Virus record (IMG/VR): IMGVR_UViG_2636415673_000002
DNA from: a virus
Taxonomy: Duplodnaviria; Heunggongvirae; Uroviricota; Caudoviricetes
Reading direction: 5' to 3' (one strand)
DNA: 16,446 nucleotides
Shown in pieces: positions 806 to 5,380 of the stretch. The translations under genes were made by a program, and so were the position numbers. The notes beneath the pieces are model-generated. The model did no database searches and had not been told where the DNA came from. It worked only from the letters and a program-made list of their open reading frames with translations. Each line of letters starts with the position of its first letter. Within the stretch, counting starts at the first letter, position 1.

Positions 806-1261
806 TTATTGCTGGTATTGCCAACTGCTGACTAAAGCGTACAAGTGGTTTGGAGAATAGCGCCAGCTTTCCTTCAGTTGCAGAAATTCAGCACAAAATT
901 CACTGCAAAACAGGCGATCGCGCTGTTCTTTATTACCGGTAATAATTCCTAATGCTCCGCGCCAGTCATATTTTTTGCCATCATGTTTACGGAAAAAAGT
1001 TTCCACATCCTGAAGGCTGGCCTGGAGCGGCAGCATATCCCACTTATCCGCTGGCAATGGCATTATTTTTCCGCGTACACCGCGATCGCGCAGTGATGCG
1101 GAGTAACAAAGGTAACTCTTTTCACCATGCTTAATGGCTAATTCACAGTGGGAATAATGACCACGTGTGATTTTACGGGTAAGCCAGTCAGCCAGTCGGG
1201 CAATACCACGGTGCTCTGTTCGGCCCTTATAACAAGCGAGCCAGACAGTGGTTTTACTCAT
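806..1261 (-). CDS. YiiX/YaeF-like permuted papain-fold (NlpC/P60 superfamily, Peptidase_C92-like) hypothetical protein
   Basis: 151-aa ORF whose ATG overlaps the stop of the upstream tail-fiber-assembly-like gene (ATGA at 1258-1261), so it is the last gene of the tail operon. Contains a His-before-Cys arrangement (GHYSHCEL near residue 33, then LFCSEFCAEF near residue 118) that resembles the HS-YSH and YCSE motifs of E. coli YiiX as I recall them. No signal peptide. Assignment is by motif memory only. Confidence 0.4.
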   Translation of the reverse strand: MSKTTVWLACYKGRTEHRGIARLADWLTRKITRGHYSHCELAIKHGEKSYLCYSASLRDRGVRGKIMPLPADKWDMLPLQASLQDVETFFRKHDGKKYDWRGALGIITGNKEQRDRLFCSEFCAEFLQLKESWRYSPNHLYALVSSWQYQQ

Positions 1262-1863
1262 GGTTGCCAGCCTGTTGAATAATCGTAGTCGAGCACCGCC
1301 TGAATATCGTCCAGTGCTTCCACCGCCGCGATATGGTGCTGGGCATTGGCGAACAGGCGCATATCGTGATCCATGGTGACCGATTCAAACTGGGCGGCGA
1401 TTTCGTTGGTTAACTCGATCAGACCGTTATTTTTAGTTTTCCACATTAAACCTGGAGGGATTTTTTTCTCCGCTCCCATTTTAGTGAGTGAAAGCTGTTG
1501 GATACGGCTATTTGTATCACTGTGGAAGTGATGGTTGTTGATGATGATGCAATCTACTGTTATTTCATCACGTCGATTTTTTATTTCCTGTGTAACCTGA
1601 GCCTTGGTATTCTCCAGTGCAACGGTAAATAACGTCTTGTTATACACCCATTTATCATCCTCTAAGATATAAAAGTTATCCGGAGGTGGCGTAGTGATAA
1701 TTTTGAATGGGTCAAGACATATCCAGCATGGTTTATCTTTTAACTGCCACTGCTCATCATCTACAGGAATTACTGAATCAGGTAATTCCACAGTAAAAGA
1801 GGCTGCATCTATCCAGTCAATAACCTCAAAGGTTACCGGATGGTAATACGCATATCGTGTCAT
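1258..1863 (-). CDS. Tail fiber assembly (Tfa-like chaperone) protein
   Basis: 201-aa ORF immediately downstream of the tail fiber gene with a 4-bp gap, the usual position of P2 G / lambda Tfa-type chaperones. GC content is clearly lower than the rest of the cluster (about 40 percent in sampled stretches). Call is mainly positional. Confidence 0.5.
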   Translation of the reverse strand: MTRYAYYHPVTFEVIDWIDAASFTVELPDSVIPVDDEQWQLKDKPCWICLDPFKIITTPPPDNFYILEDDKWVYNKTLFTVALENTKAQVTQEIKNRRDEITVDCIIINNHHFHSDTNSRIQQLSLTKMGAEKKIPPGLMWKTKNNGLIELTNEIAAQFESVTMDHDMRLFANAQHHIAAVEALDDIQAVLDYDYSTGWQP

Positions 1864-1867
1864 CTGT

Positions 1868-3637
1868 TCACCATAAAATTTTTATATAACCACCCAAGCC
1901 ACGACCGCCATTGCGGGCAACGTGGTTTACCCAAGTTGATCCTAAACCAGCCCCTCCCCCACCTCCCGCCCCATAACCAGAGCCGGATTGACCATCACTA
2001 TTCGCTCCTCCCAAGCCCCCTTTTCCATAAGGAGTATTTACTGCAGTTTCACCGTTGCTGGAGTATGTTTTGGGAACCTCTCCTACTGAGTTGGCGTGCG
2101 GGGAGTCGATAGTTATGATTTTACCTCCCCCCCCACCAGCACCGCCGGAAGCACTCTGTGAAGAAAAATGTGATGCTCCTCCTGGAATACCTGCTTGCCC
2201 CATTGCATCTTCGGGAATCCATCCCGGACCACGCTCTGGTATCACCTGTGTACCTCCAGCCCCTCCAGCCCCTCCGGACCCAACTGTAAAGGAATACATA
2301 TCTCCGGGTTTAACTGTGAGAGAGGCAATTATCAGTTCACCGGGTTTTCCTGCTCCGCCGCCTAGTCCAAATTTTGGATTCAGCATTGTCGAGCTTCCGG
2401 CGACTGCCCCACCTCCACCGCCCCCTCCGCCGCCTGACATTTCCAGAAGTATTTCTGTCACTCCAGCTGGCACGGTAAATGTTCCATTTGATGTATAGAA
2501 TCGGAATGAGGAATTGTTAATCCTGCTATATGCCTCACAGGCTTTATCATACGCCGCCTTCACCGCGCTCGGTGTCGCCGCCTCCGTCGTACTGTTGCTA
2601 TCCGTCGCGTTATTAAGCTTCACAATCCCTTTTTGCGACAGGGTGCCGTCTGGAACACCCGTAATCTGTCCCCATGGGTGAGTATGGTTTCCCGCAGCCT
2701 TACTATTCGCCAGGTCATATGCCGCCTTCACCGCGCTCGGTGTCGCCGCCTCCGTCGTACTGTTGCTATTGGTCGCGTTATTAAGTTTCACAATCCCTTT
2801 TTGTGTCAGGGTACCGTCAGGAATACTCGTAATCTGTCCCCAGGGGTGCGTATGACTACCCGCAGCCTTACTATTCGCCAGGTCATATGCCGCCTTCACC
2901 GCGCTCGGAGTCGCCGCCTCTGTAGTGCTGTTGCTATTGGTCGCGTTACTAAGCTTCACAATCCCTTTTTGCGTCAGTGTGCCATCTGGTATATCAGTAA
3001 TCTGACTCCAGGTATGACGATGATTTCGAGCCTCAATCAGTGCCGCTTTCACCGCTTTTGGCGTAGCCGCTTTGGTTTCGTCATCACTGTCAGTGGCGTT
3101 ACTCAACTGCGTAAAGCCTTTTTGTGTCAATGTAGCATCAGGGTGGTTAGTCGAATGTTCGTGTTCATCCAGTTGCGAATCGACGTAATCCCGTGTTGCC
3201 AGCACAATACTGGGATCAACGGTGAGTGTTACCGCAGTCGTGTTGGACACTTCCATAATGAGACGAATGCAAACTTGCTTACCGCAGCCGCCGGGTAATA
3301 GCGGTTTATACGACTCCGGGAATTTACCGATAGCAATGAGTTCACCATCGGTATCAAAAACGCCGACTTCACGTATATACCAGCCGCCGATATTTTCGGG
3401 CAGTACAAGTTCCGCAATTAACCAGCTAGGATTATTGGGCGCAACTGTTAATGTATTTAAATCACCGCGCCAGACCTCATGGCGTAATTTAGTTTGACTC
3501 GCCGTGGGTTCATAATATTGCCCACCGCCGTCTCCAACGGCCATCTTTTGCAGATGCAGTTGTTTTTTATCCGCAAGAGCACTGGCAATTTTTGCCATCC
3601 CTCTATTGGTCAGGAGGGTATAAAATTCATTATCCAT
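1868..3637 (-). CDS. Tail fiber protein (P2 gpH-like N-terminal domain, repeat shaft, glycine-rich C-terminal tip)
   Basis: 589 aa. The N-terminal roughly 160 aa carries P2 gpH hallmarks (MAVGDGGG, HEVWR, IAELVLP, ESYKP, ATRDYVD). Residues about 163-370 are 3 to 4 copies of a 56-aa repeat (TLTQKGIVKLSNATNS..TEAATPSAVKAAYDLANSKAAG.HTHPWGQIT), each with an HxH motif. Residues about 376-589 contain multiple polyglycine tracts. ATG at 3637. Confidence 0.85.
   Translation of the reverse strand: MDNEFYTLLTNRGMAKIASALADKKQLHLQKMAVGDGGGQYYEPTASQTKLRHEVWRGDLNTLTVAPNNPSWLIAELVLPENIGGWYIREVGVFDTDGELIAIGKFPESYKPLLPGGCGKQVCIRLIMEVSNTTAVTLTVDPSIVLATRDYVDSQLDEHEHSTNHPDATLTQKGFTQLSNATDSDDETKAATPKAVKAALIEARNHRHTWSQITDIPDGTLTQKGIVKLSNATNSNSTTEAATPSAVKAAYDLANSKAAGSHTHPWGQITSIPDGTLTQKGIVKLNNATNSNSTTEAATPSAVKAAYDLANSKAAGNHTHPWGQITGVPDGTLSQKGIVKLNNATDSNSTTEAATPSAVKAAYDKACEAYSRINNSSFRFYTSNGTFTVPAGVTEILLEMSGGGGGGGGGAVAGSSTMLNPKFGLGGGAGKPGELIIASLTVKPGDMYSFTVGSGGAGGAGGTQVIPERGPGWIPEDAMGQAGIPGGASHFSSQSASGGAGGGGGKIITIDSPHANSVGEVPKTYSSNGETAVNTPYGKGGLGGANSDGQSGSGYGAGGGGGAGLGSTWVNHVARNGGRGLGGYIKILW
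2528..3151 (-). repeat. Tandem 168-bp (56-codon) repeats inside the tail fiber shaft
   Basis: Near-identical DNA copies begin at 2553, 2721 and 2889 (period 168 bp), with a diverged copy near 3042. They encode the phage tail-fiber repeat with HxH motifs. Confidence 0.8.
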
Positions 3638-3639
3638 AA

Positions 3640-4272
3640 TTACTCCGGGTAAATAGATGTAATTTCAAGGCTCCATTGCCCTGTTCCGTAATAGATTGAT
3701 GTGTTTTGCTGTACTTCCCGTATCTGGAAAGGTAAAACCGACGTCAGTTCACCACCATAAAGTGCACAACCAATAACAGGAATAGCACTTTGGTTAATGA
3801 TCCAGACAATTAATGCTTCCAGTTTTGAACGTGTGTTTTTATATTCATGAATGAGTTCTACCAGATTATTGAAAAGGTTTTCATCCATGCCTTTATCCAC
3901 CAGCTCTATATCAACCTTAAAAAAATAAGCCTTCCCCCCATATTCAAACCATTCTGAAATAGTTCCTGGTAATGAGAGTATTTCCAGCACCCGCCGTACC
4001 GCCCAAATCGTTCCTTTATATTTATGCAGCTCAATGGCTTGCTTAATTAGCTCGCGCTTCTCCCGTTCATCGGTGGTAAATAACCAACCTTCCAGCCCCT
4101 GAACGTGAAATTGTTCTGCAAGGGCTGGTAATGCCGAAGCATCAACCAGGTCGACCAGATAAACCATCAACGCCGTAAGATCGAGTTGGGCAAAACGCTC
4201 GGCGGCGATATTTGCCAGAATCGAAAAACGCTCATCGCTGGCAAGCGGCGGCGGTGGCAGCAATTTATCCAT
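3640..4272 (-). CDS. Baseplate/tail protein I (P2 gpI-like)
   Basis: 210-aa ORF between the J-like gene and the fiber gene. Start overlaps the J stop by 8 nt, and the fiber ATG follows its stop with a 2-nt gap. Size and position match P2 gpI. Confidence 0.75.
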   Translation of the reverse strand: MDKLLPPPPLASDERFSILANIAAERFAQLDLTALMVYLVDLVDASALPALAEQFHVQGLEGWLFTTDEREKRELIKQAIELHKYKGTIWAVRRVLEILSLPGTISEWFEYGGKAYFFKVDIELVDKGMDENLFNNLVELIHEYKNTRSKLEALIVWIINQSAIPVIGCALYGGELTSVLPFQIREVQQNTSIYYGTGQWSLEITSIYPE

Positions 4273-5380
4273 CGCTAACTCCGGCGATCGTTACGTCTAT
4301 TGCAGTGCATTCCGCCCATTCATGCGCCTGCAAAATACGTTTTGTAGGCAAGTTCAGCACAACGTCATAGACGCCATCGACCTGTAACACTTTGATTATC
4401 TGGTTTGGCACAATGTCCTGCCCCAGATGTTTCTGCCGCTGTTGCGTCCAGAGGCTAATCGCTTTACGCGCCGCAGCCAGAGTTGTCTCCTGATCGGCGG
4501 TGGTAAACAGCGTTAGCTGCGCACGGATCTCATACGGCACTCGAAGAGCGCATTTCGCACTCACTTTGTCGGTCAGCGGACGTTTTTTCTCCTTGCTAAC
4601 CTCCTGTTCGATTTGCGCGAGCAGTTCTATTCCCGGCAGTCCGTTCAGGGTTAGCGGGTAGATCTCCACGCAGCCTTCTGGCAATCCCTCGTCCGGCCCC
4701 AGTACTGCAACGTCAATAATCGACTGGCTTACGGAAAGCGTATGAAAGCGGTAGGCACCATAGCTGCCCGCATTACTAAAGCTTTCTGGTGCCAGTTGGA
4801 TACGCTGGCGCAATGCGTCATCGCTCTCTTCACCGCAGCCGCCCGTTGACGCAGTCAGGTTGATTACGTTGATGTCATAATGACCAATCCTGTCGACCAG
4901 AGCGCTAATTTGTGCAGGCTGCCAGCCGTTACCCTGTTCACCTGCTGCGAGGCTGGTGGCAGGAACGGCGATATGCAAACTCCTGGCCGGGAGCAGAACA
5001 TCTTCATCGGTGGCGAACATCACGCTATCAGAGGCACTGGCCCGCGTCCCCTGGGGAATCAGGATATTGCTGGTATACGCACTGACAACCGAAAACTGCA
5101 ACGTCGTTTTTGCTGACTGCGCAGGCAAACGATGAACGCCCACCAGCTCCCCTAAATAATCCAGCATTGGCGCGCGGGAATACGCGACCAGGTTCTGTTT
5201 CGCCGCTTCCTGAATGGCGATGCGTACAAGGTTTTCACGATAGGCAAAAAGGTCAATCAGCAACCGCTCGGCCTGTGCCGGGTAGAGCTTTTTGCCGCTG
5301 GCATCTTCGTATTGCGCAATCATCTCGCTGGTAATTTGCGCAGGATCGCGTTCAATAAAATTGGGTTCGGCTATCGCCAT
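4265..5380 (-). CDS. Baseplate J-like protein (P2 gpJ / T4 gp6-like wedge)
   Basis: 371-aa ORF with a GGAGG Shine-Dalgarno upstream of the ATG at 5380. Positioned between the W-like and I-like genes as in P2. Confidence 0.8.
   Translation of the reverse strand: MAIAEPNFIERDPAQITSEMIAQYEDASGKKLYPAQAERLLIDLFAYRENLVRIAIQEAAKQNLVAYSRAPMLDYLGELVGVHRLPAQSAKTTLQFSVVSAYTSNILIPQGTRASASDSVMFATDEDVLLPARSLHIAVPATSLAAGEQGNGWQPAQISALVDRIGHYDINVINLTASTGGCGEESDDALRQRIQLAPESFSNAGSYGAYRFHTLSVSQSIIDVAVLGPDEGLPEGCVEIYPLTLNGLPGIELLAQIEQEVSKEKKRPLTDKVSAKCALRVPYEIRAQLTLFTTADQETTLAAARKAISLWTQQRQKHLGQDIVPNQIIKVLQVDGVYDVVLNLPTKRILQAHEWAECTAIDVTIAGVSDG

Follow-up and report, generated by a model that had tools for sequence, protein, structure and literature searches.

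The closest described counterpart of the domain considered here is the tip of gp24, the fiber protein of cyanophage Pam3. It has 12 glycine-rich motifs arranged in a lattice of four layers and is hypervariable at its distal end; its chaperone is gp25, and receptor binding by the distal loops has been put forward as a proposal (PMC9608196). Pam3 gp25 and Mu Tfa are both chaperones in which a variable N-terminal domain sits on the tip and the C-terminal domain is conserved (PMC9608196). The fiber studied here is encoded in a viral DNA stretch of 16,446 nucleotides (Caudoviricetes; IMG/VR record IMGVR_UViG_2636415673_000002), the whole of which is referred to as the window. We consider it quite probable that residues 376–589 of this fiber are the distal, receptor-recognizing tip of a trimeric P2 gpH-like fiber and a divergent PF21722 domain with Pam3 gp24 as its prototype. 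The fiber gene, its domains and its neighbors are as follows.

4265–5380, minus strand: gpJ-like baseplate wedge gene, upstream of the fiber gene (Pfam Baseplate_J, 1.3e-61)
3640–4272, minus strand: P2 gpI-like gene, directly upstream of the fiber gene (Pfam Tail_P2_I, 4.9e-34)
1868–3637, minus strand: tail fiber gene, 589 aa, stop codon at 1868–1870 (ORF list and translation)
3188–3637, minus strand: N-terminal baseplate-attachment domain, aa 1–150 (Pfam PF12571 Phage_tail_fib, E 4e-61, profile positions 1–150 of 150)
2552–3145, minus strand: shaft, aa 165–362, four PF03406 Phage_fiber_2 repeats (Pfam E 1.8e-71, 4 matched stretches)
1871–2512, minus strand: C-terminal glycine-rich tip domain, aa 376–589, of the Gly_rich_2/Pam3 gp24 type (Pfam envelope aa 382–580, nt 1898–2494)
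1258–1863, minus strand: DUF4376 protein, 201 aa, directly downstream of the fiber gene (Pfam DUF4376, 1.1e-13; PHROG tail families)
806–1261, minus strand: ORF of 151 aa that follows the DUF4376 gene and closes the tail operon (PHROG 1128, E 4e-58)

An identical fiber sequence occurs in E. coli 2021CK-01784 under the RefSeq name "tail fiber protein" (WP_039720181.1). An earlier note on this DNA had described a P2 gpH-like fiber with a shaft of HxH-containing repeats, and this description holds: each of the four PF03406 repeats carries one such motif (HEH, HRH, HTH and HTH, read from the translation), and alignment of the first 370 aa with the tail fiber of Peduovirus P2 gives 49% identity and covers 92% of their length. 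The 151-aa ORF gave no match in Pfam and is kept across alleles (96% identity between E. coli alleles), and a PADLOC scan of this ORF and of the neighboring nucleotidyltransferase and slipin protein returned zero matches.

The span proposed earlier for the tip, 1871–2512, proved exact, encoding residues 376–589 of the 589-aa ORF. Glycine makes up 62 of these 214 residues (29.0%) versus 6.9% of residues 1–375, an excess with a binomial probability of 1.5e-22. All the polyglycine tracts quoted in that note, which had counted at least six in the last ~210 residues, are present, together with a seventh, short one (GLGG). In order along the protein, the tracts and the variable segments between them are:

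2408–2434, minus strand: Gly tract 1, GGGGGGGGG, aa 402–410, the most conserved tract of the family
2369–2407, minus strand: variable segment 1, AVAGSSTMLNPKF, aa 411–423, candidate receptor-contacting loop (entropy and gap content high in an alignment of 98 sequences, pLDDT lower)
2348–2368, minus strand: Gly tract 2, GLGGGAG, aa 424–430
2252–2281, minus strand: Gly tract 3, GSGGAGGAGG, aa 453–462
2189–2251, minus strand: variable segment 2, TQVIPERGPGWIPEDAMGQAG, aa 463–483 (pLDDT 74–81)
2123–2146, minus strand: Gly tract 4, (S)GGAGGGGG, aa 498–505
2027–2110, minus strand: variable segment 3, IDSPHANSVGEVPKTYSSNGETAVNTPY, aa 510–537, the longest, with high entropy and the lowest pLDDT of the model (63–78)
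2006–2020, minus strand: Gly tract 5, GGLGG, aa 540–544
1982–2005, minus strand: variable segment 4, ANSDGQSG, aa 545–552 (alignment variation)
1940–1972, minus strand: Gly tract 6, GAGGGGGAG(LG), GAGGGGGAGLG, aa 556–566, within the family-wide GYGxGGGGG motif
1913–1939, minus strand: variable segment 5, STWVNHVAR, aa 567–575 (alignment variation)
1889–1900, minus strand: Gly tract 7, GLGG, aa 580–583, immediately preceding the conserved terminal strand YIKILW

Variable segment 2 comprises a ~17-residue insertion that is missing in ~90% of relatives (gap fraction ~0.9, alignment A2).

Family membership follows from several searches. PF21722 (Gly_rich_2) aligns end to end with the tip (profile positions 1–219 of 226) at an E value of 2e-4; the window allele scores 17.9 and 21.7 bits, under the Pfam gathering threshold of 24.3, and a sister E. 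coli allele from the same locus lies above this cutoff with 48.6 bits. A 14-sequence tip profile matches the Pam3 fiber (7yfw_a, E 1.8e-8; 7ypx_A, 2e-8; profile positions 7–200 of 200) as well as Bxb1 gp33 (E 2.9e-6), and PF21722 is present in most of the profile matches listed. The framework motifs of the family are all found in the tip, F-T-x-x-G-x-F-x-V-P-x-G-V and V-x-P-G...V-x-V-G as FYTSNGTFTVPAGVT and VKPGDMYSFTVG, GYGxGGGGG as GYGAGGGGG and the C-terminal G-x-V-x-I-x-W/Y as GGYIKILW, and they align with those of 13 and of 97 relatives. Because the tip is of low complexity, a word-indexed search with the single domain gave few and partial matches, and it was the exhaustive phmmer and profile searches that were informative. 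The single tip sequence retrieved just one, spurious, nitrogenase match from the PDB sequences, so that a profile search was needed to reach Pam3, and a tblastn search with the tip gave no match in a collection of 50,697 phage records that includes P2, probably owing to low-complexity masking and divergence. None of the NCBIfam models matches fiber or tip, and literature searches on PF21722 or Gly_rich_2 found nothing specific. The combination of PF03406 with PF21722 recurs in E. coli fibers, in clusters of up to 186 member sequences. Judged from these sequence matches, the tip is a divergent and rare member of a known fiber-tip domain, and it is usual, not novel, for this domain to be joined in cis to a shaft of the P2 gpH-like type.

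The AF2 monomer model of the tip (pLDDT 89.3, pTM 0.85, with 159 of 220 residues at pLDDT ≥90) predicts a TNF-like β-sandwich with a glycine-rich lattice of hairpins, of the Pam3 gp24 type. In this model the Gly tracts receive no helix or strand from DSSP, an outcome compatible with the extended polyglycine-II conformation and ~5 Å packing that we infer for them. The P2 gpH-like shaft, together with the analogy to Pam3, suggests a trimer that would carry three tip domains.

Comparison with the closest alleles yields 54–75% identity within the Gly tracts, 24–41% in the strands and 8–15% in the inter-tract segments, the latter with 26% gaps, and the entropy map of the alignment is concordant. 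Variation thus concentrates between the tracts, a point the earlier note had proposed to check, and the layout it described, glycine motifs alternating with hypervariable segments, stands. Between E. coli alleles, the N-terminal part and shaft of the fiber are 96.7% identical and the tip 38.4%; in the DUF4376 protein, aa 1–100 are 35% and aa 101–201 are 96% identical. The tip is therefore exchanged in E. coli as a cassette with the N-terminal half of the DUF4376 protein:

1500–2600, no strand assigned: exchanged cassette of ~1.1 kb, tip domain plus 5′ half of the DUF4376 gene (sliding identity, MAFFT pair alignment)

Against the common E. coli allele, that of strain EC9, DNA identity is 37–74% within the cassette and 95–100% in the flanks. 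The cassette is carried by 6 of 5426 complete E. coli genomes; the six genomes with this allele are 99.9–100% identical, and ~190 other genomes listed share one common allele. The N-terminal domain of the window DUF4376 protein is 63% identical to that of a Salmonella allele versus 35% to that of the E. coli sister allele, despite the Salmonella backbone being more distant than that of the sister.

The DUF4376 protein is probably a fiber assembly chaperone, a role that we infer from its two halves and its homologues: aa 1–104 (nt 1552–1863) vary with the tip, conservation is seen in the C-terminal half (PF14301), PF02413 Caudo_TAP occurs in some homologues, and one homologue is named "Putative phage tail fiber assembly" in UniRef. 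No sequence or fold match to Pam3 gp25 or Mu Tfa was detectable. The same pattern could be taken to mean that the glycine-rich domain is a cap or docking platform on which the DUF4376 protein stays bound as the real adhesin, in the manner of gp38 on gp37 or of a retained Tfa, given that its N-terminal half equals the tip in variability and is co-exchanged with it and that the matching PHROG families are named "tail fiber protein" or "tail protein". We regard this as unlikely, since a chaperone gripping the tip predicts equal co-variation, as for Pam3 gp25 and Mu Tfa, and since the chaperone of the Pam3 complex lies over the loops and, according to the authors of that work, should leave before virion maturation (PMC9608196); moreover, it is the tip's own variable segments that evolve fastest, at 8–15% identity.

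Less probable still is a reading of the tip as a gp38 adhesin module of the T2/S16 type, homologous to gp38 and fused in cis to a P2-type fiber. The gp38 proteins of T2 and S16 do share a principle with the tip, namely conserved glycine motifs, a rigid lattice and variable loops at the far end of the fiber. The kinship suggested in the earlier note was nevertheless not borne out on direct comparison with S16 gp38, by Pfam, hhalign and BLASTP. S16 gp38 matches PF05268 (GP38) at 4e-73 and PF21721 (Gp38_N) at 1.1e-19, whereas the tip matches neither at E values up to 10, its sole Pfam match being PF21722. Profile–profile comparison of the two by hhalign gives a probability of 7.3%, over 15 glycine columns, and BLASTP gives an E value of 42. 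S16 gp38 is not among the fold matches listed for the tip model, and the gp38 fold (a β-helix with a three-layer polyglycine sandwich, 6F45) was not found in the tip. With no likeness to the tip in sequence, profile or listed fold, S16 gp38 therefore appears to be an analogue from another family. The idea that the tail is a low-complexity disordered linker or a slippage artifact with no defined fold, to which its extreme glycine content of 29%, the lack of regular DSSP secondary structure in the tracts and the loss of most BLAST signal to the low-complexity filter might point, can be set aside, for the model is confident (pLDDT 89.3, 159 of 220 residues ≥90), the tip has a homologue whose structure was solved by cryo-EM, the non-glycine strand motifs of the tip are kept in hundreds of relatives and six genomes share the same intact frame.

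Preferring the Pam3-type tip, for which the composition, family homology, predicted fold, variation pattern and cassette exchange are all observed, we propose the following mode of action. A small TNF-like β-sandwich, with strands including FTVPAGVT, ILLEMS, LIIASLTV, YSFTV and the C-terminal YIKILW, would project hairpins whose glycine-rich extended arms lie next to one another in a lattice held by hydrogen bonds, and the exposed hairpin ends would be the non-glycine segments between the tracts. Three such domains would stand at each fiber end. The five variable segments (aa 411–423, 463–483, 510–537, 545–552 and 567–575) may contact a cell-surface receptor and would therefore set the target range. 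The DUF4376 chaperone would bind the tip through its variable N-terminal half and serve general assembly through its conserved C-terminal half, and specificity would shift by swapping the whole tip and the chaperone N-domain as one cassette.

In E. coli 2021CK-01784 the locus lies between yjbD and lysC and runs from holin and lysozyme through sheath, tube and baseplate to the fiber. The cluster includes a Mor-type activator, and none of its genes is annotated as head or integrase. It is possible, and we put this forward tentatively, that the window is not what is left of a prophage but represents an R-type tailocin of E. coli, a contractile-tail particle that lacks a head and is fixed in the chromosome, with a natural change of killing spectrum through the swap of a 1.1-kb cassette; literature searches gave nothing specific on an E. 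coli or Salmonella tailocin known from the yjbD–lysC locus. If so, the cassette, consisting of a Pam3/ALK-like TNF-plus-polyglycine tip and the tip-binding half of its chaperone, would be a compact natural template for tailocin retargeting. For host-range or tailocin engineering the boundaries to copy are the tip from ~residue 363 and the first ~100 residues of the DUF4376 protein, with the five inter-tract segments as the first targets for mutation. The classification of enterobacterial P2-like fibers with polyglycine ends is corrected from gp38 to a Gly_rich_2/Pam3 gp24 type, predicted to be trimeric, cis-fused and chaperone-dependent, and an abundant, uncharacterized E. coli and Salmonella fiber tip is now tied to Bxb1 gp33/gp29 and to the ALK/LTK fold. 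As a known Pam3-type Gly_rich_2 domain, and not a T2/S16 gp38, the tip would therefore be an ordinary exchangeable receptor-binding tip; it reveals no new principle.

Set against known systems, the locus compares as follows. Whereas gp38 is a separate monomer docked on the gp37 trimer, the window tip forms the C-terminal end of a single, uninterrupted ORF of 589 aa, and the gp38 lattice has three layers and 10 motifs and rises from a β-helix rather than from a TNF-like sandwich. The extracellular TNF-like plus glycine-rich ("TG") ligand-binding domain of ALK/LTK (PDB 7NX3, 7LRZ, 7LS0 and 7LIR) has its fold in common with the tip but is a metazoan cytokine receptor domain, larger than the tip, with ALKAL as ligand; profile and Pfam searches (including Gly_rich PF12810) gave no sequence match between the two, and the window offers no metazoan receptor context. 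Bxb1 gp33, the "tail wing brush", and a subdomain of the gp29 tail spike (PDB 9D93) likewise share the fold, but, unlike the window fiber, belong to the siphovirus tail-tip complex of an actinobacterial phage. With P2 gpH the window fiber has PF12571, PF03406 and the gpI/gpJ neighbors in common, the match being confined to the N-terminal part and shaft, and where P2 has the canonical gpG gene the window has a DUF4376 gene downstream of the fiber instead. Pfam PF21722 (in NCBI "glycine-rich domain-containing protein") shares with the tip the start motif, GGGGGG tracts, GYGxGGGGG and the terminal G-x-V-x-I-x-W, the window allele differing in its sub-cutoff score (21.7 vs 24.3 bits) and its rarity. 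Finally, Pam3 gp24 (PDB 7YPX and 7YFW) carries its tip on a short α-helical stalk and serves a phage with a cyanobacterial host, whereas the window tip stands on a P2 gpH-like N-domain and four HxH repeats in a fiber with an enterobacterial host, and the loops of the two differ, including the ~17-aa insertion specific to the window.

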